A stretch of 37,447 nt of DNA from a virus (Duplodnaviria; Heunggongvirae; Uroviricota; Caudoviricetes): the IMG/VR virus record IMGVR_UViG_2609459830_000021; one strand, written 5' to 3'. The notes beneath the pieces are model-generated. The model searched no databases, had not been told where the DNA came from, and saw only the letters and a list, made by a program, of their open reading frames with translations. The translations under genes were made by a program, and so were the position numbers. Positions within the stretch are counted from its first letter, which is position 1. The number at the start of each line of letters is the position of its first letter. Of the stretch, positions 3,398 through 36,851 are shown one piece after another.

Positions 3398-4612
3398 TCA
3401 GAGCTTCACTGCGGTATCAACAGCAATCACACCGTGATCCTGCATCCTGCCGCTCTTCTCCGGGAAACGGATTTTTTTCAGACCGTTGATCCAGCTGATT
3501 GCTATCTCAGTACGGTTATCCATATCCGTTTTCTTCTCAACCATGTTGAAGTGACCGCCGCCCTTCTGACCGTACGCATTCGCCAGTGCCTGAGCACCCA
3601 GCAGCATGGCGCGGTCAATGTTGGTTGCGGCCTGCTTCTCTTCTGTGGTTGCCGTCAGGTCGTTTTTCGATACCAGAACCTTTGACCCCTGATAGAAACG
3701 GATCGGCATCCCCGCATACTTGCGGACCAGGATATTGCGCCACATCGCACATTCGCCTTTGAACAACGGATGATTAAACCCTTTTGAACGGTTCACGGCA
3801 CGCGTCATCATCTGGTTCCAGTCCTTGCCGGAAGTTGAGGTGTACCAGTCATTCCACTGACGCGGCGTAACGTACAGGACGTAATACGGATCTTCGCCAT
3901 GCAGTTCATCTCCGGACAGACGCACCGGCTGTAACGGATGGGCCATCTCGTCAATAAACAGCGAGAGATTATCGACCAGCCCAAGGGTGAACAGGTCTGA
4001 CTGATCAATACCGTCAAAACTCGTCGCATCACCACCAAAAAAATGACGGTCATACGTCGGCGGCAGTACGTCGTTGATCATGATTTTTTTGAATTCAGGG
4101 TGATCTGCCGTTGGCAGAATGGTGTCGTCAGCAACAAAATCACCGCGGGCACCGGCAAGATGCACTATCGCACACTGGTCCTGCAGGTCGTTAAAGTACG
4201 TACCCAGCAGCGTTCTGGCAGAGGATGCCAGGTTGAACTTCGTACGCTGCTGGCTCATACGTCCGCCCGCATCCACCAGGTGACGGCCCTGATTAATTTT
4301 CAGGGAAAAATCAGCATGGCTGAGGTCTTCACCACGGCCTTCAACGCGCTCATCCCCCATCGTCGGACGTTTAGAGAGTTTGTGCATGATGCTGAACGTC
4401 ACTTCATCACCGGCCTGTTTGTTGAGGTCAGTGATCCGTACAACCGGCGCACCCGCGCTGGTCTGCTTCGTGCTTTGCTTGTCCGGCGAAACCGCTTTTG
4501 GCGCTTCCTGCTGTTCAGTGAGGATATTGACCATCGAGCGGTTGCGGTTGGCAGCGGTAAAAAGCGCCACCTGATACAGCTTATTCGCCTGGGCTGATGT
4601 TACAGTCGTCAT
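3398..4612 (-). CDS. major capsid protein (404 aa)
   Basis: size and position after scaffold gene; protein composition typical of HK97-fold coat proteins; ATG at 4612. Confidence 0.7.
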   Translation of the reverse strand: MTTVTSAQANKLYQVALFTAANRNRSMVNILTEQQEAPKAVSPDKQSTKQTSAGAPVVRITDLNKQAGDEVTFSIMHKLSKRPTMGDERVEGRGEDLSHADFSLKINQGRHLVDAGGRMSQQRTKFNLASSARTLLGTYFNDLQDQCAIVHLAGARGDFVADDTILPTADHPEFKKIMINDVLPPTYDRHFFGGDATSFDGIDQSDLFTLGLVDNLSLFIDEMAHPLQPVRLSGDELHGEDPYYVLYVTPRQWNDWYTSTSGKDWNQMMTRAVNRSKGFNHPLFKGECAMWRNILVRKYAGMPIRFYQGSKVLVSKNDLTATTEEKQAATNIDRAMLLGAQALANAYGQKGGGHFNMVEKKTDMDNRTEIAISWINGLKKIRFPEKSGRMQDHGVIAVDTAVKL

Positions 4613-4635
4613 TACTTCAGTTCTCCTTCAGTAAG

Positions 4636-5643
4636 TTACCCGAGCTTCTCCAGAAGCGCGTCTATTTCAGCATTCGTCATACCGCGCATAATCGCCTCTG
4701 CCTCTGAATGAGAAGCACCAAGTAACCGTTCAAAATTATCACCGGTTCCGACGGAAGCCGTGTTGCCAAGCTCTGACGGGGAAGCAGGCACTGCCATCTC
4801 CCGTTCAGCGGCTTTCACTTTTTCTTCCGCCGTTTTCCGGATATCCGTGTTGTCTGCCTTGTCATCAGAAGGCGGCTCACTGGCTTCACCGAAAGCGAGC
4901 TGCGTACGGCGGGCCACTTCGGCGAAACGTTCAGTGAGCGGTTTGTCTTTCCATGCGGGGTCATTCTGGAGCTTCCCGTCGATGGATACGGCAACCGAGA
5001 AGCGATCCGGATCGGAGTTCTGCCACGTTTTCAGCACCGGCACGTCATTCATTGCATCAAGAACCGGTGATAAATCCTCACCACCATGACCTTCTGCCTG
5101 CTGTGCTGATTGCTGAACACGGGACTGGAGATAGTTATTTTTACGGATAAGCGAAGCCACCGCGTCGCCAATTTCCGGATACATCTCCCTGATACGGGCA
5201 ATCTTCTCATCAGAGATTTTTTCGTTTTCCGGTAACGGTGCGGGTTTCATACCGGCCTGGTGGATCTGAGACGTCAGCAGTTCAACCAGGCGTTTTTCTT
5301 CGGCTATCTGTCCCCGAAGAAGTGCGGCTTCCTGTTCGGCCCGCTGCTTACCGGAACGTTCAGCCTCAAGGACTTCATAGGGAATGACGTGTTTACCATC
5401 GCGGGTGAGCACACCCTTCGCCTCCGGCTCCTTCACGTCCTGCGTCTGCTCAGCACTGGCATCCGGCGTCGGTGCCGCAGTGTTATCGCCCGTCTGTGTC
5501 TGTGCTGCCTCATCCGCATGATTTTCTGTGGCGGCCTCTGTCACGCCGTCCTGTTCGTGACCGTCAATATCCACATCTCCAAGCCCTTCCAGCATTTTTT
5601 CCAGTTGTTCCGGGGTTTCTTCACCCGTAAATTCAAAATCCAT
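4636..5643 (-). CDS. scaffolding protein (335 aa)
   Basis: acidic, low-complexity, coiled-coil-rich protein between portal and capsid genes. Confidence 0.6.
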   Translation of the reverse strand: MDFEFTGEETPEQLEKMLEGLGDVDIDGHEQDGVTEAATENHADEAAQTQTGDNTAAPTPDASAEQTQDVKEPEAKGVLTRDGKHVIPYEVLEAERSGKQRAEQEAALLRGQIAEEKRLVELLTSQIHQAGMKPAPLPENEKISDEKIARIREMYPEIGDAVASLIRKNNYLQSRVQQSAQQAEGHGGEDLSPVLDAMNDVPVLKTWQNSDPDRFSVAVSIDGKLQNDPAWKDKPLTERFAEVARRTQLAFGEASEPPSDDKADNTDIRKTAEEKVKAAEREMAVPASPSELGNTASVGTGDNFERLLGASHSEAEAIMRGMTNAEIDALLEKLG

Positions 5644-13928: not shown

Positions 13929-15839
13929 TTATGCGGCTGCTCCAGCTTTGTTTGCTTTAACTTCCACCGTATCAATAAGTACAGGGTAGGTTTCTGCACT
14001 ACCTGTAATATCCGTAATGACAAACCTGTTGAGTCCATTAGCAGTATTGGCCCATTTCACCAGGTCAAACGCCTGTCCATCCACACCATCAAGCACCGGA
14101 GTAACATTAATGCTGTTACTGCCCTTAAATTTAAATGCAAGCGTATGCCAGTCATGGTCGAATGCGCCAAACGTGCCAAGTTCTTTTTGTTGATTAACTG
14201 TATGATGGTATGCAACATTAATACTGGCTTTATCTGTCTGGACAAAGAAAGAACTCAGATGGCCTTCACCACCCTCACCCGGCCATTCCGCTATTCGCCA
14301 GTACAAACCAAAGGCATACTTGTTTCTGGTTGTCTCAAGATTGACGTTTTCGGGGATTTTAAACCGGACAGCAATTTCCCCGCCTTTTTCCAGTAAAAGT
14401 TTTGCCTTGTCTGCAGCAATATCACAGTACATTGACCAGGATTTCGCGCTGTTATTTTTCTCAATTCGCAGAGCTTTATTGCCGCTGTCATCAACCAGTG
14501 TGCGCCTGCCATACACACCGTCCCAGCCATAGGGTTTCAGCTGATTGTCTGTAGCTTTTTTGGCATCGTAAAAAATTACAGACTCTGAGGTGGTAACCGG
14601 TCTGTCTGGAACAACCACCCCGGCAGTACCATTAACAAACGCAGAAGACTTACCCGCGCAGCTCAGAATCGCCGTTGCCAGACGGTCGGAAATAATCCCA
14701 CGGCGAGCCCATGAACTGAAATGGCTCGCCCTGTCCTGTGACGTCCAGGTGGCTGAGCTGTCACGCCATTTCGAACCGTAATAACCGATACCCGGAATGT
14801 CCGGGTCTTCTTCCGGTTTGTTCGTCGGCACATTCACCCCGTTCTCATCGGTCATGAACGGTACGAAATGGATATTCTTTTCCGTTTTATTTTTATAGCT
14901 GCCGTACACCGTCTGGTACGTGGATTCGTTCTTCTGCTTCCAGAAATACGTCGTGTCCCCGCATATCCAGGGAACACCGCCAGCAGAGCCACCGACGCAC
15001 TGGCCTGCCATATCCGCCAGGTCTGCACGGAATTTATCAACCAGCGCACCAAACTGTGCGGCATGATTTGCCGGCGTACCGCCAAAATCAAATTCCCCCT
15101 GCATCCACACCACGGCAAACAGCACATTTTTCGGGTTCTTCTCCAGTGCCGCTTTTGTTCGACCGATAAGGTCCTTATACAGCGGCTTGTCCACACCCCA
15201 GCGGGGTGAATTCTCCGAGGCGCCACTCGCGTCACTGTATGTGCCATCAGCTCCGGTGGTGAACGCTGAACCACCACGACAGCACGGAACCAGCAGAATG
15301 CCCGCATTCGCCGGTATAAACGGCAGCAGTTTTTTGGCGATATGCAGCCCCTGCCCCACGGTTCCGTACTGCCCCTTTGACAGGTCCGCTTTCGGATGGT
15401 TAAGACGGCTCATGTCCTGCACATCATGCAGACAATGGTCCGCCGGAATGATGTCGTTATATTTGCATGCTGCACCGCCCGGTGTCACCGTACTGCGACG
15501 CGCTAACTGTTTAATACGTGGATCAGGGCTGTCGAATGTATCCGGTAATGGCAGTCCCTCACCGTATGACATACCATTGGACTGACCAGCAAGCGCGATC
15601 ACATAGTAATATTCTGGCGCAACAGAAGGCGCTGAGGTCGTCGGACGGTTGCCTGGCTCCTCTGGTGATGAGATGCTCCCCTCACTCACAACTGGCTGGA
15701 TGAACTCCGCACCATAACCAGCTGTCGAAATCAGCGCACTACCATAAGGCTGCCACCCTTCCTTCAGTTTTTGAGTTATTCGTTTCGCAAGGTCTGACGG
15801 CGACGCCGCCCTGACAACATCATAGTGTTTAAATGCCAT
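13929..15839 (-). CDS. nanS-p: prophage 9-O-acetyl sialate esterase NanS-p (N-terminal DUF1737-like domain, SASA-type esterase domain, C-terminal lectin-like domain)
   Basis: 636-aa protein in the position downstream of Q that in Stx2 phages follows stxAB; MAFKHYDVVRAASPSDLAKRITQKLKEGWQPYG N-terminus and central GQSN esterase-type motif recalled from 933W L0105-type proteins. Confidence 0.7.
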   Translation of the reverse strand: MAFKHYDVVRAASPSDLAKRITQKLKEGWQPYGSALISTAGYGAEFIQPVVSEGSISSPEEPGNRPTTSAPSVAPEYYYVIALAGQSNGMSYGEGLPLPDTFDSPDPRIKQLARRSTVTPGGAACKYNDIIPADHCLHDVQDMSRLNHPKADLSKGQYGTVGQGLHIAKKLLPFIPANAGILLVPCCRGGSAFTTGADGTYSDASGASENSPRWGVDKPLYKDLIGRTKAALEKNPKNVLFAVVWMQGEFDFGGTPANHAAQFGALVDKFRADLADMAGQCVGGSAGGVPWICGDTTYFWKQKNESTYQTVYGSYKNKTEKNIHFVPFMTDENGVNVPTNKPEEDPDIPGIGYYGSKWRDSSATWTSQDRASHFSSWARRGIISDRLATAILSCAGKSSAFVNGTAGVVVPDRPVTTSESVIFYDAKKATDNQLKPYGWDGVYGRRTLVDDSGNKALRIEKNNSAKSWSMYCDIAADKAKLLLEKGGEIAVRFKIPENVNLETTRNKYAFGLYWRIAEWPGEGGEGHLSSFFVQTDKASINVAYHHTVNQQKELGTFGAFDHDWHTLAFKFKGSNSINVTPVLDGVDGQAFDLVKWANTANGLNRFVITDITGSAETYPVLIDTVEVKANKAGAAA

Positions 15840-16060: not shown

Positions 16061-16324
16061 GTCCATAAGAAAGCCCCTCCGGAGAGGGGCTGGAGAGTGG
16101 CGCTATGTGCCATTGCATGGTGCCGGGTGCCTCCCGGTGAGTTCAGCCCGGTGCCACTAAACCCGCGTCATTCTCGTTTTGATAATCAGAGATTATACCG
16201 TCACCAGTCGCCCCTCCGCTCAGGGGGATTCACCATGCAGTTTTTTCTAACAAATTCTCATCCGGGCAGACAACATTCAACTGACTTAATTGTGAGGTAT
16301 GTAACATTCCCGTTGAACGGATAC

Positions 16325-16604: not shown

Positions 16605-17039
16605 TTACGATCGTAAACTATTTTTTCGCTGATAAAATACAGAGCTTCTCCCTCCCGGCAATTCACGCTCAACATACCGATCCATCTCAAGCCTCACTCC
16701 CAGCATCATCAGCATGCCTTCAACAATCCCCTCCGCTTTGTGAAGGCGTTTACCTATACAGGTGTCAGAGCACCCATGTTTCCGTGCCAGCGCCATGAAC
16801 GTCTCCCCCAACACGTAGTAATCAACCAGCAAGTCATGCAGATCGCGATTGTTCCGGTAAAGGCGGGCTATGCACCCGCATATCACCATCGCATCATCGT
16901 CACAGCACTGTGGACGTGATTTTACTTTTTCGGGGATCAGTCCCTTAAATCCGGCAGCAATGGGCGACCATGTAACATCCTCATAGTTATTTACCGCCCA
17001 TGCCCCCCAGCGCTCAAGAACCTGCCGGATATCACGCAT
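16605..17039 (-). CDS. Q: late antiterminator Q (144 aa from ATG 17039)
   Basis: [36 protein letters not shown]…[16 protein letters not shown]…[23 protein letters not shown] matches the 21/82/933W-type Q family as recalled; start chosen at ATG overlapping ninH stop, alternative starts 17081 or 17138 possible. Confidence 0.7.
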
Positions 17040-17226
17040 CAGTATCTTTACCCCATCCGCGATGAACCATAAGGACGCCATTGACGACGGCGTGCTTTTT
17101 CGCATCTTTATCATCAATGTATTTTCTGACTGTAGCACGATTGCAGTTCAGTATTCTGGCGACTTCTGTCTGATTTCCCCTGGTGCAGATCAGTAATTCA
17201 GGTATCGTTTGAATTTTAGCATTCAT
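17032..17226 (-). CDS. ninH: NinH-like DNA-binding protein
   Basis: [55 protein letters not shown] parallels lambda NinH (…[42 protein letters not shown], from memory); ORF track start 17229 is TTG, ATG at 17226 used. Confidence 0.8.
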
Positions 17227-19355: not shown

Positions 19356-19513
19356 AATGACGCCCTCGAGTGGTTTCTTAATAACTCACCACCGACGACG
19401 CCAATCGTCTGGTGGTGAACTGTGCAGGGTTGGCGTAACCGGGAAACCGACCGGCGCGGATCTCTCCGCCCCCACACAGCCCACCATAATTCAGATGTGC
19501 GCGTGCATACGAC

Positions 19514-19593
19514 AATAAAAAACACGCTCGCGGCGTGTATCTGTCGCGGTCTCTATCCAGGACGCCAATCCCGACGCCAGATTTTGCTGGCGC
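19514..19593 (-). ncRNA. candidate small RNA A (promoter, 5' hairpin, intrinsic terminator) upstream of ORF6N gene A
   Basis: minus strand: TTGACG (19624-19629), 18-nt spacer, TATATT (19600-19605); 5' hairpin cgccag-caaaat-ctggcg (19575-19592); terminator acacgc-cgcga-gcgtgt + UUUUUU (19516-19538); whole unit conserved in copy B. Confidence 0.45.
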
Positions 19594-19808
19594 GTGAGGA
19601 ATATAGCCCCGAATAAATCATCACGTCAATCACCTTGTTTTCCTCGCACGATGTCTTAGCCACCGGATATCCCACAGGTGAGCCGTGTAATTGAAGGCTT
19701 TAACGTCAGATTCTTTTGGGATTGGCCTGGGTTTATTTCTGGAACGTTTCGTTGGAAGGTAATTGCAGTTTTCACAGACTATATCGGTAATGCTTCGTCG
19801 CTGTCGTC

Positions 19809-20939: not shown

Positions 20940-21101
20940 AATGACCTCGCGTTTCGATAATTTTTACCTCGCCACCGTCAGGTGCTAATCATCGTGGTGG
21001 CGAACTGTGCGGGGTTAGCACTACCGGTCGAAACATCCGGCGAGCCTTTCGGCTCCCCCACACAGCCCGCCATAAATCGCGAATGTGACTGTGCTTAGCG
21101 C

Positions 21102-21178
21102 ATAAAAAAACCGCCAGCGCGGTTATGCACCGTTTCGATATCCGGGGTGCTAATCCCGACGCCAGGTTTTGCTGGCGC
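21102..21178 (-). ncRNA. candidate small RNA B (paralogue of sRNA A) upstream of ORF6N gene B
   Basis: minus strand: TTGACA (21209-21214), 18-nt spacer, TATATT (21185-21190); 5' hairpin cgccag-caaaac-ctggcg; terminator aaccgc-gctg-gcggtt + UUUUUUU (21104-21122). Confidence 0.45.
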
Positions 21179-21281
21179 GTGAGGAATATAGCCCCGAACA
21201 CGCGACGTTGTCAAACTGATGGCATTGCAGATCCCTACGCAATGTAACACTATGTGTTATACATTAATAACGGAACAAAAA

Positions 21282-22905: not shown

Positions 22906-23061
22906 TTACTCCTCAGGTTCGTAAGCTGTGAAGACAGCAACCTCCGTCTGACCGGTTCGGATTCGTACCTCGCAGAGGTCTTTCCTCGTTACCAGTGCCG
23001 TCACTACGACGGTAATACAGATGACGATCAGGGCGACTAACATCGCCTTTTGCTGCTTCAT
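22906..23061 (-). CDS. hok: Hok/Gef-family type I toxin (51 aa)
   Basis: MKQQKAMLVALIVICITVVVTALVTRKDLCEVRIRTGQTEVAVFTAYEPEE is near-identical to HokD/RelF as recalled; overlapping upstream in-frame ORF to 23118 corresponds to mok. Confidence 0.85.
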   Translation of the reverse strand: MKQQKAMLVALIVICITVVVTALVTRKDLCEVRIRTGQTEVAVFTAYEPEE

Positions 23062-23104
23062 AGCCTGCTTCTCCTTGCCTTTCGGCGCGTAAGAGGCTAA
23101 CCTA

Positions 23105-23170
23105 CATATGTCTAGCATGAAATTGGCCTCAGATTAATGTTAGGCGTCTTGCAGGACGCGTAATGTTAAC
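23105..23170 (+). ncRNA. sok: candidate Sok-type antisense RNA overlapping mok translation initiation region
   Basis: expected by hok/sok architecture; plus-strand TTGCCT-17-TAACCT promoter-like elements near 23085-23112 and hairpin gcgtc-ttgcag-gacgc at 23145-23160; boundaries approximate. Confidence 0.3.
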
Positions 23171-23306
23171 TGGGGCTTTTCTCTGTCTGCCTTACGGTGG
23201 CATGCCCGAGGCAGACAGCCTCAAGCACCCGCAGCAATTCTACTTAACTCTCGCTTTACCGCAAACCGTTTTTACCCGATATGGGAATTCCCATATCGTA
23301 ATGAAT

Positions 23307-28842: not shown

Positions 28843-29604
28843 ATGACACAGTTTCAACTTGCATTAATCGCTAGAGAAGTTGATGGAGAAGTCATCCATC
28901 TTCGCACCAAAGACGGATACATCAATGCCACCGCGATGTGCAAGTCTGCGGGGAAGCTACTTGCTGACTATACACGACTAAAAACAACACAAGATTTTTT
29001 TGATGAATTATCACGCGATATGGGGATTCCCATATCGGAGTTAATTCAATCATTTAAAGGCGGAAGAGCAGAGAATCAAGGGACTTGGGTTCATCCAGAC
29101 ATCGCAATTAATTTAGCTCAGTGGCTATCTCCAAAATTTGCAGTGCAAGTATCGAGATGGGTGCGTGAGTGGATGTCAGGTGAAAGAGCGCCTGCCGAAC
29201 TCCCTATCCACCTTAAGCGGTATATGACAAACCGAGGCAGAGTTCCTCATACGCACTTTTCTATGCTTAATGAACTGACGTTTAACTTGGTTGCGCCACT
29301 TGAACAGGCCGGATATACGCTGCCAGAAAAAATGGTCCCTGATATTTCAGAGGGTAGGGTTTTCTCGCAATGGCTCCGTGACAACCGGGGGGTTGAGCCG
29401 AAGACATTCCCAACATATAACCATGAGTACCCAGATGGCCGGACATTCCCGGTACGTCTATACCCAAACGAATATCTTGCAGATTTCAAACAACACTTCA
29501 ACGAAGTGTGGCTGCCTCAGTACGCTCCTAAATATTTTGCTGAACGAGACCAAAGGGCATTGACGTTGATTGAGAAAATCATGCTACCTGACCTTGATTC
29601 CTAA
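28843..29604 (+). CDS. KilA-N domain protein (253 aa) occupying the rexAB position downstream of cI
   Basis: N-terminal ~110 aa resembles KilA-N/APSES-type domain (…HLRTKDGYINATAMCKSAGKLLADYTRLKTTQDFFDEL…WVHPDIAINLAQWLSPKFAVQVSRWV…); C-terminal ~140 aa unassigned; 32 nt after cI stop, same strand. Confidence 0.6.
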   Translation: MTQFQLALIAREVDGEVIHLRTKDGYINATAMCKSAGKLLADYTRLKTTQDFFDELSRDMGIPISELIQSFKGGRAENQGTWVHPDIAINLAQWLSPKFAVQVSRWVREWMSGERAPAELPIHLKRYMTNRGRVPHTHFSMLNELTFNLVAPLEQAGYTLPEKMVPDISEGRVFSQWLRDNRGVEPKTFPTYNHEYPDGRTFPVRLYPNEYLADFKQHFNEVWLPQYAPKYFAERDQRALTLIEKIMLPDLDS

Positions 29605-30101: not shown

Positions 30102-30485
30102 ATGACACGCAGAACTCAGTTCAAAGGCAATTCACGTTCTCGTCGTCGTGAGCGTTTAAAGGCAAAGGCATTAGCTAACGGCGTGCTGGCCCGCGAAGAA
30201 GCAATAAGTTCAGAAGTATTACACCGCCCTACTCTAAGCAGAGCGCAGATTCAGGCTAAAGGTACTCACGAAACGCCTGAGCGCATAGAAGACGCTAAGC
30301 CAATTAAGTTCATGGCACAGGACGTGATCTGGCAACAGAAAGAATACAGACGCAATCTGGAGCGAGCAGCCATTGTGTACGCGAATGAGTTTGGACATAA
30401 GCAACCAGAAACTGGTGTATGTCTTCCAAACGTAGCCATTTACGCGGCAGGCTACCGGAAATCAAAACAACTGACGGCGAGGTGA
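30102..30485 (+). CDS. N: N-type antiterminator, P22 gene 24-like (127 aa)
   Basis: N-terminal arginine-rich motif NSRSRRRERLKAKA; C-terminus …LPNVAIYAAGYRKSKQLTAR parallels P22 gp24 …LPGVALYAAGHRKSKQITAR (from memory); AGGAGG RBS. Confidence 0.75.
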   Translation: MTRRTQFKGNSRSRRRERLKAKALANGVLAREEAISSEVLHRPTLSRAQIQAKGTHETPERIEDAKPIKFMAQDVIWQQKEYRRNLERAAIVYANEFGHKQPETGVCLPNVAIYAAGYRKSKQLTAR

Positions 30486-30488
30486 TTG

Positions 30489-31202
30489 ATGACCACGCCT
30501 TCAGTTTTGCCGCAAAAGTTATGGCGTCCGCTTGCAGAGATTAAAAACTTCGTTGAAAAAATGCCTGATGGAGTTCGCCTTACGGAAGTTACTAAAAAAG
30601 TTAAGACATTTGCCGAACTGTCAGGAAAGGAGAGAAACCAGCTCATAGATTTTATCGATAAACGGGAAAGCATCATTGTATTTAAGGTCAGAAAAGAAGG
30701 TTCTGGTAACGGAGTAACCTTTTTACGCTACAAAAAATATGGATATCCCAAGCGGGAAGGAAACGTCACAATCATTAAGGACCTTCAATCAAAATTATGT
30801 ACCAGATGCGGGCAGACAAAATCAGTCAATGATTTTTATTCAGATGCCAGCAAGCGTGACGGGAGAGCCATTTATTGCAAGAAGTGCGAATCTGCAATGA
30901 AACGCTCACGCAGAGAATGCAACAAATTAATTCTGCAACAACAGGAACCTGAAATGAATAACCTCAAAGCAGTTTCACCTTCACCAGAAATACTCAGAAA
31001 ACAGGCTGAAGAATTGCTGAAAGCCGCCGAAATTGCGGAGAAAAAACGCCAGGAAGATGATGCATTCAACAAAAAACTTGCGCCCTTAAAACTTGAAATC
31101 CTTCAGGCCGCCGGAAAAATGCAGCTTAAACTGGACGAATTCATCGACTGTATGGATGAAATGAATAAAGCAGTTCAGAAGCTTAAAGAGCTGACCGCCT
31201 GA
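30489..31202 (+). CDS. hypothetical early-left protein with CxxC…CxxC zinc-ribbon-like motif and coiled-coil C-terminus (237 aa)
   Basis: CTRCGQTK…YCKKCES; GAGGTGA RBS; ORF track TTG start at 30486 moved to ATG 30489. Confidence 0.5.
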   Translation: MTTPSVLPQKLWRPLAEIKNFVEKMPDGVRLTEVTKKVKTFAELSGKERNQLIDFIDKRESIIVFKVRKEGSGNGVTFLRYKKYGYPKREGNVTIIKDLQSKLCTRCGQTKSVNDFYSDASKRDGRAIYCKKCESAMKRSRRECNKLILQQQEPEMNNLKAVSPSPEILRKQAEELLKAAEIAEKKRQEDDAFNKKLAPLKLEILQAAGKMQLKLDEFIDCMDEMNKAVQKLKELTA

Positions 31203-31233
31203 TATTAATAAATTGCAACTACCGGAGTTAACT

Positions 31234-31593
31234 ATGAATGAAACAGAACTGAAGCACATTATCGCCCTGCTTCTGGAAGATGCCAGACAGGTTTATCGAC
31301 TTAGCCCAAATTCCGCAACGCAGGAACGCATCCGGATAGCGGAAACAGCACTGAAACAGGACAATGGAAACGGCATATCCAAATTTAGCGCCGCCAGTGA
31401 AAATGAAGTAATAGAAATAAACAGCAATATCAGCGATAGTTGCGTCGCTTACAGCCACCAAATAATTCGTGTAAGCGCAAGAATAATGGAAGTGATGGCA
31501 AGTGAGCTTGAAAAGAACAACATCAAGCCCACTGATTGTTGTTTAAGAACCGTAATGAACGTTATTTATTACTCGATGTTCCGAAGTCGCTAA
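31234..31593 (+). CDS. hypothetical early-left protein (119 aa from ATG 31234)
   Basis: GGAG RBS 7 nt upstream of ATG; ORF track start 31213 is TTG. Confidence 0.45.
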   Translation: MNETELKHIIALLLEDARQVYRLSPNSATQERIRIAETALKQDNGNGISKFSAASENEVIEINSNISDSCVAYSHQIIRVSARIMEVMASELEKNNIKPTDCCLRTVMNVIYYSMFRSR

Positions 31594-31771
31594 CAGCGTC
31601 GAGTTTTTCATCAAAAAATGATTCAAATGCATCGTAAAATACGGCAATAGCACCGCCCTTATCTACCGCGGCAGGAACTGCCTTTTGAGGTATATCTTTC
31701 TCCCTGAATTGTGTGTTGTAGGTATCGACAGCCAGCCGCATCAGAAACATCACTTTTTCTTCTTGTGTCAT
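31562..31771 (-). CDS. hypothetical small acidic protein (69 aa) on opposite strand within the PL operon
   Basis: strong RBS TAAGGAGAGTGAATT before ATG 31771; convergent with and overlapping the 3' end of the preceding plus-strand ORF by 32 nt. Confidence 0.45.
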   Translation of the reverse strand: MTQEEKVMFLMRLAVDTYNTQFREKDIPQKAVPAAVDKGGAIAVFYDAFESFFDEKLDAVSDFGTSSNK

Positions 31772-32011
31772 AAATTCACTCTCCTTACGGGGTTTGTAGT
31801 TGAGGAGTTCTCCACGGGTGAGGTGGAGATCGTGCGCCGGACACGGGTGAGTTCCGGCACTCTCACTTTACTGAACAGACATTACCCTGAAAAGCCAGGG
31901 TACTACACGAAAGCGCGAGGCGAAGACTCTTTCCCATAGAAGGATTGTCGTTAGATTTCTTCGACCGTGCGCTTCCGGTTGTGAATAACAACATTGCTGT
32001 GTGTAACCCTT

Positions 32012-32052
32012 GGCGGATATCGGTTTGCCGATTGCTGATGTCCGCCCTTTTT
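32012..32052 (+). terminator. intrinsic terminator-like hairpin in early-left intergenic region
   Basis: ggcggatatcgg…ccgattgctgatgtccgcc followed by cttttt. Confidence 0.4.
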
Positions 32053-32228
32053 AAAGTGAATTTTGTGATGCGGTGAATGCGGCTCAGCGCACGCGGAACA
32101 GTTAAACCGACAGGATGTCACGGAAAGTCATCGTCCCCTGACCCGGCGTTAATTGTTAACTGGTTAACGCCACCTGGAGGCACCAGGCACCGCATCAACA
32201 AAGTTCATTTGTGAAAATGGAGATAATT

Positions 32229-32450
32229 ATGATTGCTCATCACTTCGGAACTGATGAAATACCACGTCAGTGCGTGACGCCTGGCGATTATGTTCTTCAT
32301 GAAGGTCGGACATATATCGCTTCAGCAAACAATATTGAAAAGAGAAAACTCTATATTCGTAACTTCACAACAAAAACATGCATTACCGACTGCATGATTA
32401 AAGTTTTCATCGGGCGCGATGGCTTACCCGTAAAAGCAGAGTCGTTGTGA
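32229..32450 (+). CDS. hypothetical small protein (73 aa from ATG 32229)
   Basis: GGAG 8 nt upstream of ATG 32229; ORF track start 32211 is GTG. Confidence 0.4.
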
Positions 32451-32523
32451 CGAGTAATAAAATACACCTTCCATATCTGCCGAAATAAAAACCGCATTAA
32501 TTATCAATCACGGAAAAATCAAA

Positions 32524-32910
32524 ATGAAAGAACTTGCGCAAAATGAAATATTTTCCGAAACCAGTCCTGATGCAATAAATGAACTCAAAGAAATTGCAGA
32601 ACGCATCAGTAAAATATGCAAAGAATACAAAATCGACTTTGTATTTTCTTTTTCAGTGCTTACAGAAGTTGGAAATAACGAATATAAAGACAGTCGTTTG
32701 GTTTCATGTGGGTTAAATGGCAAAACACCAAGCCCATATATTCATGCTGCATGTGAAGTCGTCAGAAGCAACATTGGAGCACAACAAATCCATACACTGG
32801 CGCAGGCTCTTGAATTTGCAAGAGAAAATTCTGAGTGCGACTGCTCTGAATGCCAGCACGAAAAGGGAAAAACAACTCACAAAACAGCAAACCAGGCAAC
32901 CTTCCACTGA
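32524..32910 (+). CDS. hypothetical protein (128 aa) with C-terminal CDCSEC motif
   Basis: ATG start; no family recognised. Confidence 0.4.
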   Translation: MKELAQNEIFSETSPDAINELKEIAERISKICKEYKIDFVFSFSVLTEVGNNEYKDSRLVSCGLNGKTPSPYIHAACEVVRSNIGAQQIHTLAQALEFARENSECDCSECQHEKGKTTHKTANQATFH

Positions 32911-33017
32911 AATAAAAATCCGGCAGCGCAGGCTACCGGATTTCTCCCTGCGTCACCGTATTCGGAGAAATCAGACAAAGGGCCTCTAATTCTAATCCAG
33001 CCAGAGGTTTAAATACA

Positions 33018-35090
33018 ATGAGCGCTGATAAACAGACTTTTGCACTACACTGCGAAGCAAAAAACGATAAAGTCAGAAAACGCCTTGGCATCAAAGGCGG
33101 TTTTTTCTGGGCTGATGCCAGAAAACTTTCTGTCGCAGTTTCCCGCTGCATTGCAGCCATGGACGATGCAGGCTACGACGAGGATGATTTCAAAAAACCC
33201 GTTCGCGTAAATTTCCCCGTCGTGAATGACCTTCCACCGGAAGGCGTGTTTGATACTGAATTCTGCAACCGCTATGAAAAAGGCGGGGAAGATGGCATCA
33301 CCATGATGGCTATACCCTTCAATGACAACATCAACGGTGAAGATGCCACAACTGCTGGCGATGACAACGATGACCCGGACGGAACTATTCCGGATGATGT
33401 GGAGAAAAACGAATCCCCGGACAGCGACGATGACTGTTCTGAGTGTGAAATTCCCGTCGCCACTCTGAGCCTTACTCATCGCTTCCTTCACCTCTTCTTA
33501 TTCAGCAAAGATGAAGATGGAAAATACCGGCATCATGCCACACCAGAACAACGCAATAACGTGATCCGTATGGAGATGGACACAGAGGACAGTTACCTTC
33601 AGAGCCTGCTTACTGCTGTGCGCGCCGCGCATCATGAACTGGATAAACTGACGAACTATCACCTTAGTCGCCTGGCTGAATCTGTAGGGAAAGCATTCCC
33701 CCACTCTGCAAATCATCGCATCAGCCCGGCTGAATTCGACAAGTTCATTTCCACCTGGATGAAAACTGACTACCTTGATCAGGGCCTGCTGACAAAAGAA
33801 TGGCAGAACGGAAATTATGTTTCAGGCATTACCCGTACGCCTTCCGGTGCTAACGCTGGCGGCGGAAATATTACCGATCGTGGTGAAGGATTCAAACATG
33901 ATAAGACATCACTCGCACGAGATGTAGCCACCGGCGTTCTGGCCCGTTCAATGGATGTGGATATTTATAACCTGCACCCAGCACACGCAAAACGCGTTGA
34001 AGAAATCGTGTCAGAGAATAAGCCGCCCTTTTCTGTTTTTCGCGACAAATTTATCGCCATGCCCGGTGGGCTGGATTATTCCCGCGCCATTGTGGTGGCT
34101 TCCGTGAAAGAAGCACCAATCGGCATTGAGGCCATCCCGGCACGCGTGACTGAATATCTCAACAAAGTGTTGACCGAAACCGATCACGCTAACCCGGATC
34201 CGGAAATCGTGGAAATTGCCTGCGGTCGCTCATCAGCACCGATGCCGCAGCGCGGAACAGCAGAAGGAAAACATGGCGATGAAGAAAAGCAACAAACATC
34301 GGACACAATGGCTAATGAACAGGCAGCGCCTGAATCAGTGGAAGAAATTCCAGTTAAACATAATGAGGACACGCAATCACTGGAAAATGTCTCATCTGTA
34401 GAAACGAAATACCAGGAACTGAGGGAGGAACTCAATAAAGCCAGGGAAAACATCCCCCCAAAAAATCCAGTCGATGCCGACAAATTACTGGCTGCCTCGC
34501 GTGGAGAATTCGTTGAAGGCATCAGTAACCCTGCTGATCCGAAGTGGGTGAAGGGGATCCAGACTCGCGACACTGAGGACCAGAATCAGCCCAAAGTGGA
34601 ACAAATTGCCCCAGAAGCGGGACAAAACAGCCCGGATACGCAACAAAACGGGCCAGAAGAGCAACAGCCAGGGCCAGTAATGCAACAGGAAGTGGAAAAG
34701 GTTTGCACCACATGCAGTCAGAACGGTGGCGGCCATTGCCCTGACTGTGGTCCAGTAATGGGAGATGAAACTTACGCTGAAACTTTTGGAGAAAATGACG
34801 CCGCTGATGGAGAAGACTCAGCACAAACTGAGGAGAAGATCATTCAGGAAAACTCTGTTGATGCCGCTCAGGAGGGCGAAACCGTTGTTCAGAACGAGCC
34901 AGGCAGTGATACGTCCGGCGATGACGCCAATTCTGAGCCAGTAACTCTCGACTGGAAAAGACAGCTCGTGATTGCCGCCGTCTATGGTTTGTGCGCCAAC
35001 CCCGCATGTATAGCCACAGCGCCAGCAATCCCTGATATCGCCATCATGATTGCCAACAGGCTTGAAAATTTCGAAGGTGATAAATCATGA
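33018..35090 (+). CDS. large acidic early protein (690 aa), function unknown
   Basis: long ORF with multiple acidic low-complexity tracts and two Cys clusters ([20 protein letters not shown]); stop overlaps gam start (ATGA). Confidence 0.55.
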
Positions 35091-35383
35091 ATGCCTGGCT
35101 TATCCCCGATCGCATTGAAGAGCAGTCATGGGCACGACACTACCAGCAAATTGCCCGTGAAGAAACTGAAGCTGAGCTGGCAGACGACCTGGAAAAAGGT
35201 CTGCCCCAACACCTGTTTGAATCGCTATGCATCGATAATCTGCAACGTCACGGGGCCAGCAAAAAAGCTATTTCCCGTGCATTTGATGACGATGTCGATT
35301 TTCAGGAACGCATGGCAGAACACATCCGCTACATGGCTGAAACCATCGCCCGTCACCAAATTAATATTGATTCAGAGGTATAA
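35087..35383 (+). CDS. gam: Gam (RecBCD inhibitor, short 98-aa form)
   Basis: …[48 protein letters not shown]… parallels lambda Gam as recalled. Confidence 0.9.
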
Positions 35384-35388
35384 AACGG

Positions 35389-36174
35389 ATGAGTACAGCA
35401 CTCGCAACGCTGGCAGGGAAGCTGGCTGAACGTGTCGGCATGGATTCTGTCGACCCACAGGAACTAATCACCACTCTTCGCCAGACGGCATTTAAAGGTG
35501 ATGCCAGCGATGCGCAATTTATCGCATTGTTGATCGTCGCCAACCAGTACGGCCTTAATCCCTGGACGAAAGAAATTTACGCCTTCCCTGACAAGCAGAA
35601 CGGCATCGTTCCGGTGGTTGGCGTTGATGGCTGGTCCCGCATTATCAATGAAAACCAGCAGTTTGATGGCATGGACTTTGAGCAGGACAATGAGTCCTGT
35701 ACATGCCGGATTTACCGCAAAGATCGCAATCACCCGATCTGCGTTACCGAGTGGATGGATGAATGTCGCCGCGCACCATTCAAAACCCGCGAAGGCAGAG
35801 AAATCACCGGACCGTGGCAGTCGCATCCCAAACGGATGTTACGGCACAAAGCCATGATTCAGTGTGCTCGCCTGGCCTTCGGATTTGCTGGCATCTATGA
35901 CAAGGATGAAGCCGAGCGTATTGTCGAAAATACTGCATATACTACAGAACGTCAGCCGGAACGCGACATCACCCCGGTTAACGAAGAAACCATGTCGGAA
36001 ATTAACGCCCTTCTTACTTCCATGGAAAAAACGTGGGATGACGACCTGTTGCCGCTCTGTTCCCAGATTTTTCGCCGCAACATTTACACATCTTCAGAAC
36101 TAACACAGGCTGAAGCTGTGAAGGTTCTTGGATTCCTGAAACAGAAAGTCACAGAGCAGAAGGTAGCAGCATGA
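35389..36174 (+). CDS. bet: Bet (Red-beta single-strand annealing protein, 261 aa)
   Basis: [66 protein letters not shown]… matches lambda Beta as recalled. Confidence 0.95.
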
Positions 36175-36851
36175 CACCGGACATTATCCTGCAACGTACA
36201 GGGATCGACGTGAGAGCTGTCGAACAGGGGGATGATGCGTGGCACAAATTACGGCTCGGCGTCATCACCGCTTCAGAAGTTCACAACGTGATAGCAAAAC
36301 CCCGCTCAGGAAAGAAATGGCCTGACATGAAAATGTCCTACTTCCACACCCTGCTGGCTGAGGTTTGCACCGGTGTGGCTCCGGAAGTTAACGCTAAAGC
36401 GCTGGCCTGGGGAAAACAGTACGAGAACGACGCCAGAGCCCTCTTTGAGTTCACTTCCGGCGTGAATGTTACTGAATCCCCGATCATCTATCGCGACGAA
36501 AGTATGCGCACCGCCTGCTCTCCCGATGGTTTATGCAGTGACGGCAACGGCCTTGAACTGAAATGCCCGTTTACCTCCCGGGATTTCATGAAATTCCGGC
36601 TCGGTGGTTTCGAGGCCATAAAGTCGGCTTACATGGCCCAGGTGCAGTACAGCATGTGGGTGACGCGAAAAGATGCCTGGTACTTTGCCAACTATGACCC
36701 GCGTATGAAGCGTGAAGGCCTGCATTATGTCGTGGTCGAACGGGATGAAAAATACATGGAGGTTTTTGACGAAATGGTACCGGAGTTCATCGAAAAAATG
36801 GACGAGGCACTGGCTGAAATTGGTTTTGTATTTGGGGAGCAATGGCGATAG
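36171..36851 (+). CDS. exo: Exo (lambda exonuclease, 226 aa)
   Basis: [65 protein letters not shown]… matches lambda Exo as recalled. Confidence 0.95.

Follow-up and report, generated by a model that had tools for sequence, protein, structure and literature searches.

The window analysed here is the whole 37,447-nucleotide stretch of the IMG/VR virus record IMGVR_UViG_2609459830_000021 (Duplodnaviria; Heunggongvirae; Uroviricota; Caudoviricetes), and our subject is the early-left accessory module that it carries between the antiterminator gene N and the recombination genes gam, bet and exo. The module holds six open reading frames (ORFs), in order ORF237, ORF119, ORF69, an ORF of 73 amino acids (aa), ORF128 and ORF690, the numbers giving the length of each product in aa; all of them lie on the plus strand except ORF69, which is encoded on the minus strand. 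A preliminary description of this DNA, made from its letters and without database searches, had listed six ORFs between N and gam, and we found all six at the same positions.

The upstream border of the module is an N antiterminator gene of the 933W/H-19B type (30102..30485, plus strand; Pfam N_peptide, 2.1e-15), a region that displays 99.4% DNA identity to phage 933W up to its stop codon at 30485. Downstream lies a lambda/933W-type Red module (35087..36851, plus strand; Pfam Gam, 4.8e-65) formed by gam (35087-35383), bet (35389-36174) and exo (36171-36851), which supplies an exonuclease and an annealase (Exo and Bet); from 35108 on, the DNA is 92.6% identical to that of 933W. As the match to 933W ends at the N stop codon and restarts 21 nt inside gam, the block at 30486-35107 is a discrete mosaic unit that replaces the orf-ea10-cIII-kil segment of 933W as a whole. 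The slot is a replaceable accessory module, in agreement with the accessory block seen in the preliminary description.

Over the block the window does not differ from a prophage of E. coli ML35 (100% identity), in which PGAP (RefSeq) annotates all six ORFs, the minus-strand one included; phage PhiR5_2 is 98% identical, and phage phiSTEC1589-Stx1c and the Shigella Stx phages 75/02 and POCJ13 are 90-95% identical. Among 5426 complete E. coli genomes searched, about 81 contain 80% or more of the block and 4399 match some part of it. Every one of the six ORFs has a PHROG family that it matches over its full length, orthologues in further phages and prophages and a dN/dS below 1, indicating purifying selection; PADLOC returned no match for any protein of the block.

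The preliminary description could assign none of the six ORFs, a statement that does not stand for two of them, for which homology to KilR and to RecE is clear. It had also reported no recognisable kil, cIII, ral or sieB. When the Kil, CIII, Ral, SieB and Ea10 proteins of lambda, 933W and Rac were compared with 30486-35090 by tblastn (E <= 1), no match except KilR was obtained; cIII, ral, sieB and a lambda-type kil (and ea10) are thus absent as had been said, but a kil function is present in the form of KilR. Since the 73-aa ORF is KilR and the 690-aa protein is a RecE relative, the block does in part encode homologues of known lambdoid early proteins. Homology and gene order show, moreover, that the downstream half of the module is Rac-like, with a KilS/DicF-like small RNA region and its terminator, KilR, ORF128 and the RecE relative following one another in that order.

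A RecE relative without the nuclease domain

The last gene of the module, ORF690 (33018-35090, plus strand; Pfam PF06630, 1.4e-12; partial match to PRK09709; dN/dS 0.23-0.28), encodes a nuclease-less relative of RecE to which we refer as RecE-N. Its product aligns with residues 43-578 of the RecE protein of E. coli K-12 with an overall identity of 51%, which rises to 89% in the core (aa 256-412) and is 80% over aa 458-517, and the NCBIfam model PRK09709 covers it at model positions 1-598 of 877 with 742.4 bits, below the equivalog cutoff of 1269. By PF06630, PRK09709 and this alignment, the protein that the preliminary description left unassigned corresponds to the N-terminal ~640 residues of RecE, whereas its last ~47 residues are unrelated to RecE. 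Domain PF12684 is listed for the full-length family members P0117 and P0120 and is not listed for the 690-aa clusters. The stop codon of ORF690 overlaps the start of gam (ATGA), in line with the preliminary description, which called the two genes translationally coupled; given that gam starts at this very point, no frameshifted nuclease remnant can follow. Profile and alignment comparisons thus show that ORF690 has no PD-(D/E)XK nuclease domain and carries instead a conserved two-helix tail of ~45 aa, and from its domain content RecE-N cannot be exonuclease VIII. A sequence search of the PDB with ORF690 alone gave no match, and the family profile matched only the RecE nuclease 3H4R, via the full-length members.

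Compared with RecE (exodeoxyribonuclease VIII) of the Rac prophage of K-12, RecE-N is alike in homology, in its acidic linkers and in a CxxC-x7-CxxC motif (C563, C566, C574 and C577; 34704..34748, plus strand) that is invariant in tail-type proteins, full-length proteins and K-12 RecE; it also occupies the same gene place, at the int-proximal end of the early-left operon and downstream of kilR. In contrast, RecE carries a nuclease domain (residues 606-866, PDB 3H4R; PF12684) that is sufficient for exonuclease VIII activity and that ORF690 does not have, and recE is followed by recT whereas ORF690 is followed by gam-bet-exo; no match to Rac RecT was detected in the window by tblastn. Nuclease-less proteins of this kind (WP_032207275.1 and relatives) are nevertheless named "exodeoxyribonuclease VIII", "RecE family exodeoxyribonuclease" or even "exonuclease VII" in databases, which is a systematic mis-annotation, the exonuclease name having been transferred from the N-terminal domain alone.

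The ORF690 family comprises 208 clusters in a library built at 50% identity, 86 of which have representatives of at least 400 aa. Of these representatives 21 are of the tail type, with no nuclease; the tail of ORF690 aligns with those of the 20 others, to which it is 38-59% identical, and the motif L[TS][YFW]xQQLT[IL]AALQG[LM]CANPA-x7-[DE][DE][IL]PxMA is common to all 21. The remaining representatives mostly end in a PD-(D/E)XK nuclease or in a YdfE-type C-terminus. Alignment of the family therefore shows one scaffold with three alternative C-termini: the PD-(D/E)XK 5'-3' exonuclease, the YdfE-type end and the tail. The large YdfE-type early-left proteins (Qin/DicB-type prophages; Pfam YdfE_N, YdfE_C, Rv2179c-like) have an N-terminal scaffold of the same family as that of ORF690: an alignment with YdfE is obtained for most representatives of the ORF690 family, and its distant tail-type members bear the label YdfE_N+YdfE_C. 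Their genes take the same position in the operon, downstream of a division inhibitor, but the YdfE-type proteins end in an Rv2179c-like domain (RefSeq name: 3'-5' exonuclease) where ORF690 ends in its short tail. Among other phage protein contexts the tail was not detected, being found solely in RecE-N-type genes, in phrog_26058 and phrog_607.

The nuclease-bearing RecE protein P0117 (1049 aa), whose gene is followed by recT-lar, is 97-99% identical to ORF690 over aa 61-517, after which identity falls to 9-32%. The same N-region allele is thus joined to a nuclease and to recT in that prophage, which shows that C-terminal modules are exchanged by recombination, the exchange point being a disordered linker near residue 518.

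The selection acting along ORF690 was estimated against three orthologues. The core (aa 256-412) displays dN/dS values of 0.12-0.15 and the stretch aa 458-520 a value of 0.12, while the acidic linkers are near neutral (0.5-0.8). The tail (aa 644-690; 34947..35087, plus strand), a two-helix module standing in the place of the nuclease, has a dN/dS of 0.09-0.20 at a dS of 0.3-0.4. The full-length homologues listed, 77-100% identical, are all 680-700 aa long. A tail that is selected and motif-bearing, together with the conservation of length, indicates that RecE-N is being maintained and is not decaying.

An AlphaFold2 model of RecE-N was built on an alignment of 87 sequences. It predicts an alpha/beta domain at aa 1-103 (33018..33326, plus strand; pLDDT 84-98), a helical core domain at aa 145-415 (33450..34262, plus strand; pLDDT mostly > 90) that includes the most conserved stretch of the family (aa 256-412), helices at 459-510 and the two tail helices at 646-659 and 662-685, separated by predicted disordered acidic stretches with pLDDT < 50 (aa 104-133, 422-456 and 514-643). 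The folded parts have no significant neighbour among solved or viral predicted structures. The tail was also considered as a membrane anchor, a candidate that was rejected for the family: the KD19 value of the ORF690 tail is 1.75, but the median of the family tails is 1.05 and these tails contain conserved acidic residues.

The protein is strongly acidic, as had been remarked before (pI 4.55, net charge -60), its folded domains being near neutral. This acidity led to the earlier idea of a DNA mimic, which finds no support in the model: the acidic residues fall in the predicted disordered linkers (pLDDT < 50) and no likeness to any solved DNA mimic was found. Negative charge located in such linkers and not on a rigid surface argues against mimicry; the rigid, folded, acidic DNA-like surface of proteins of the Ocr, ArdA and Gam type is absent from the predicted ORF690, whose conserved parts are the near-neutral domains. 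More broadly, ORF690, ORF69 or both might be an acidic DNA mimic or another factor acting against restriction or host defence, which we consider unlikely. The net charge speaks for it, as does the slot, since early-left regions hold anti-defence genes, as with racC, which directly precedes recE in Rac and whose product is a blocker of the retron toxin RcaT (bioRxiv 10.1101/2020.06.22.160242); the neighbouring gene product Gam inhibits a host nuclease, ORF69, ORF119 and ORF128 are fast-evolving, and tail-type scaffolds are found without recombination genes. The structural points given above stand against it, as does the lack of a match to PADLOC or to anti-defence families. RecE-N itself might have an anti-defence role in view of RacC in the neighbouring Rac slot and of the retron that is triggered by the RecE nuclease itself (bioRxiv 10.1101/2020.06.22.160242), and ORF69, ORF128 or RecE-N may have a role in anti-defence or exclusion.

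Another explanation is that of a split RecE, in which the tail would dock the scaffold non-covalently on lambda Exo (or on Bet), thereby remaking a machine of scaffold plus exonuclease. Other members of the family fuse the scaffold covalently to an exonuclease, either PD-(D/E)XK or YdfE-type, and the tail-type gene abuts gam-bet-exo (bet second, exo third) in the window and in the comparison loci L009-L011 and L017; the C-terminal module travels with the genes downstream, the nuclease with recT and the tail with gam-bet-exo. Physical linkage alone can explain this joint travel, and the idea is weakened by the tail-type proteins of loci L018 and L019, downstream of which no recognisable exo, bet or gam is found; we regard it as improbable. 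That ORF690 could be an inert remnant, namely a Rac-like recE cut by recombination with a lambda-like phage and with its frame running into the junction, would fit the clearly mosaic block, the missing nuclease domain and recT next to Exo and Bet, and the known uptake by temperate phages of DNA from defective prophages such as Rac (PMC3945230), but it is highly improbable and already refuted for the most part: the tail is under purifying selection, its motif is kept in 21 representatives down to 38% identity, the full-length homologues listed keep their length down to 77% identity, and some tail-type proteins have no adjacent gam, so that the tail is not junction sequence.

The minus-strand ORF69 and its partner gene

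ORF69 (31562-31771, minus strand; phrog_2605 full length; WP_000189936.1 in PGAP) has the ribosome-binding site (RBS) AAGGAGAG 7 nt ahead of its ATG and converges on ORF119 (31234-31593, plus strand; phrog_2982; dN/dS 0.36-0.65), the 3' ends of both genes overlapping by 32 nt. It would encode a small helical protein, mildly acidic (pI 4.55, net charge -4). The opposite-strand gene with a strong RBS pointed out in the preliminary description is real, as it belongs to a conserved family, is annotated by PGAP and displays a dN/dS below 1 (0.35-0.44).

ORF69 has homologues in E. coli prophages, with identities of 49-59%, and in Edwardsiella phage EPP-1, with 51%. In every context examined (kilR-type prophages, dicB-type prophages and EPP-1) the gene is antiparallel to the early-left operon, with a 3' overlap of 22-33 nt with a partner gene of 118-121 or 201 aa on the strand of the leftward early promoter pL; the distance to the division-inhibitor gene that follows in the pL sense, kilR or dicB, is 460-570 nt in E. 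coli. The partners keep their last ~36 residues though the remainder varies, and the C-terminal ~36 aa of ORF119 are this module, present in every partner of the family: over its last 36 aa, ORF119 has 53% identity with the end of the 201-aa partner of DicB-type prophages, and its C-terminus also resembles that of the partner in EPP-1.

The orientation of ORF69 was previously singled out as unusual, which it is not: in lambda and Rac this slot holds sieB, which likewise runs against the early-left genes, and further unrelated antiparallel genes occupy the sieB slot in other prophages, so that this orientation is typical of a variable accessory slot and not an oddity. Like sieB of lambda, P22 and Rac, ORF69 is a single gene antiparallel to pL, flanked on one side by N or other upstream early genes and on the other by the kil region; unlike it, ORF69 shares no sequence similarity with SieB by tblastn, encodes 69 aa where SieB is annotated with 162 aa (Rac) or 184 aa (lambda), and is acidic with no hydrophobic segment (maximum KD19 0.99). 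A 156-aa antiparallel gene of locus L017 was tried as a SieB and is not one.

Among the window, L009 and L013, conservation is higher in the ~250 nt upstream of ORF69 than in ORF69 itself. Within this region we propose a putative promoter and a structured 5' untranslated region (UTR) for the gene (31772..31893, minus strand), with the boxes TTTTCA-17-TAAAGT at 31893-31865; these match 8 of 12 consensus positions in our own reading, a weak match. The ~100 nt upstream of the start codon are predicted to form a pair of hairpins, with CUCACCCGUG located in or next to the loop of each (fold z-score -3.1), and in the predicted fold of the 5' UTR an upstream CUCCU pairs with the Shine-Dalgarno sequence.

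The 10-mer CACGGGTGAG occurs exactly at 31813-31822 and at 31842-31851 (plus strand), 29 nt apart, with no other exact copy in the window; it is conserved in the distant loci L009 and L013, and each copy falls in or beside a hairpin loop on the minus-strand RNA. This pair could be a protein-binding or RNA regulatory element.

A natural deletion is found in phages 75/02 (L003) and POCJ13, where 372 bp (window 31638-32010) are replaced by 67 bp; kilR is kept, whereas ORF69 loses its start together with the region upstream, and the KilS-like RNA its first part. In 75/02, a viable Shigella phage, ORF69 has lost its first 45 codons, its RBS and its promoter, with ORF119 intact; ORF69 is dispensable for this viable phage.

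We infer that ORF69 may be an accessory gene expressed from the prophage and silenced on induction by convergent transcription from pL. A weaker rival makes ORF119 a pair with ORF69, of the toxin-antitoxin-like or regulator/anti-regulator kind, with antisense control through the convergent overlap. The constant association of ORF69 with the ~36-aa module even when the partner is otherwise different (119, 121 or 201 aa), the overlap of 22-33 nt that is always kept and the predicted pairing of CUCCU with the Shine-Dalgarno sequence are all in line with such a pair; on the other hand, neither protein resembles a known toxin or antitoxin family in Pfam, PHROG, NCBIfam, PADLOC or PDB searches, and 75/02 is viable with ORF119 and no start, RBS or promoter for ORF69, which together leave little likelihood for it.

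KilR and other features of the window

The 73-aa ORF (32229..32450, plus strand; NF008465, phrog_294; dN/dS 0.06-0.11) is identical to KilR of the K-12 Rac prophage at 67 of 73 residues (92%), scores 156.3 bits (cutoff 92) with the NCBIfam family NF008465 "FtsZ inhibitor protein" and is labelled Kil in both GenBank and RefSeq. By homology it is KilR, the Rac-type inhibitor of FtsZ and cell division. The resemblance to Rac extends upstream, the window being 83% identical in DNA to KilS plus kilR of Rac over 31967-32464. This includes a putative KilS-like/DicF-like small RNA region (31961..32060, plus strand) that ends with a 13-bp intrinsic-terminator hairpin and a U run; KilS has been verified by northern blot in K-12 (PMC8175672). 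The Rfam DicF model (RF00039) matches 31998-32047 with 29.2 bits (E 4e-4), under its gathering score of 48, and no DicF match at the gathering threshold was found in the window or in the one DicB-type locus scanned (L013). The kilR leader (32042..32228, plus strand) is also conserved: positions 32042-32209 are ~85% identical in many complete E. coli genomes, upstream of dicB as well, and 32049-32243 give a weak STnc100-like match (27.8 bits, under gathering).

The module is therefore alike to the KilR/KilS arrangement of Rac and the DicB arrangement of Qin in its 92% KilR identity, its 83% KilS-region identity and a leader common to dicB-type prophages; it differs from DicF in that its putative small RNA region scores under the Rfam gathering threshold. 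Among the DicB-type prophage loci L012-L015 (about 4429-5001), the gap between ORF63 and dicB in L013 shares its leader with kilR of the window.

ORF237 (30489-31202, plus strand; phrog_2539 full length, 1.8e-129; dN/dS 0.14) opens the module. The stop codon of N sits within its RBS (GAGGTGAttgATG), and the gene is translationally coupled to N. Its product is basic (pI 9.5), with a C-terminal helical region and a central CxxC...CxxC zinc ribbon (aa 100-164), a feature already noted in the preliminary description; this ribbon matches those of Lar-like, endonuclease VII and HNH PHROGs and is the sole part of the protein with a likeness to anything known; no nuclease domain was detected with PHROG and Pfam profiles, and no PDB, NCBIfam or PADLOC match was obtained.

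ORF128 (32524-32910, plus strand; phrog_2016; dN/dS 0.35-0.73) is acidic and fast-evolving, and its homologues form 26 clusters, all from E. coli, the full-length members being 58-95% identical. It occupies the racC/ydaE slot of Rac, that is, the position of RacC between kilR and the recE-type gene; it differs in having no detectable sequence similarity to RacC, sequence comparison showing no homology, and its predicted structure is of low confidence (AlphaFold2 mean pLDDT 49.5, too low for a structure search). PDB sequence searches with ORF237, ORF128, ORF119 and ORF69 gave no match.

Several features lie elsewhere in the window. A 253-aa KilA-N protein (28843-29604, plus strand) is a member of BstA, a family of abortive-infection proteins of prophages (phrog_6287, 1.8e-82; PADLOC BstA, 2.5e-20), and its gene occupies the gap between the LexA-family repressor (cI) and N, where 933W has stk. 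On the minus strand, a strong Rfam STnc100 match (16061-16266, 165 bits) is located between a 177-aa ORF (16605-17138, candidate Q-like) and a 636-aa ORF (13929-15839), about the position expected for a lambdoid late-promoter leader. The same strand contains two tandem sets of C4 antisense RNA, isrK and c4-a1b1 targets, above Rfam gathering (19408-19606 and 20993-21191), and a sok antitoxin RNA (23056-23230, 114 bits), which implies a type I toxin-antitoxin locus of the hok/sok type.

Proposed roles of the module

The best overall explanation, and probably the correct one, is that the block is a Rac-like mosaic module with KilR, a nuclease-less RecE-N accessory and ORF69 in the sieB slot. On induction, N-antiterminated transcription from pL would read ORF237 and ORF119 and proceed past the KilS terminator; the readthrough would then give KilR, causing a division block, followed by ORF128, RecE-N, Gam, Bet and Exo. 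RecE-N would act as a non-catalytic accessory for DNA-end handling or recombination, supplying the contribution of the RecE N-terminus to linear-linear recombination. ORF69 would be transcribed independently as a prophage-expressed accessory of the sieB slot, to be switched off by convergent pL transcription across its 3' end, and its likely partner would be the conserved C-terminal module of ORF119.

Some points weigh against this explanation. Tail-type proteins occur with no nearby gam, bet or exo in L018, and the downstream genes of L019 are all of no known kind; the scaffold is thus not tied to Red genes, and a role other than recombination is equally open. The function of the tail, which may replace the oligomeric nuclease domain in self-association or in the binding of a partner, is pure inference on our part. 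As for ORF69, the promoter scan did not list the candidate promoter, and its truncation in viable 75/02, in which ORF119 is intact, indicates that the ORF69-ORF119 pair is not obligatory.

A bolder reading, doubtful at present, takes the N-terminal ~600 residues of RecE/YdfE as an autonomous, structurally orphan unit for which the exonuclease is optional and whose own activity (e.g. DNA-end tethering, protection or counter-defence) would be the real job of the family, with ORF69 and the partner module forming a new prophage-expressed exclusion or switch cassette in the sieB slot. If this were true, the tail-type form would be a natural separation-of-function version of the RecE/YdfE scaffold.

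Returning to the Rac-like module as we favour it, lambda-Rac hybrid phages (lambda reverse) are comparable mosaics joining a lambdoid early region with Rac-type recombination DNA. In lambda reverse, the recE-recT genes of Rac stand in for red-gam; the window, in contrast, keeps lambda-type gam-bet-exo and has, of a recE-type gene, just the part outside the nuclease. Both the apparently missing kil, which is a Rac-type KilR, and the antiparallel gene, which has precedents, are ordinary. The new element is modest but real: a widespread, selected, tail-type and nuclease-less RecE/YdfE scaffold that is labelled as an exonuclease in databases, its junction being present in about 2% of complete E. 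coli genomes.

Recombineering relies heavily on RecE, yet the large N-terminal domain of RecE, about two thirds of the protein, is described in a review as being of unknown function, the only effect cited there being that full-length RecE improves linear-linear recombination (PMC11611040), and our search of the literature on YdfE and on the RecE N-terminus found no functional study. Phages maintain this N-region alone, with a dedicated tail and often beside a complete lambda Red system, which provides, for studying the role of the region, a ready-made separation-of-function allele of RecE.

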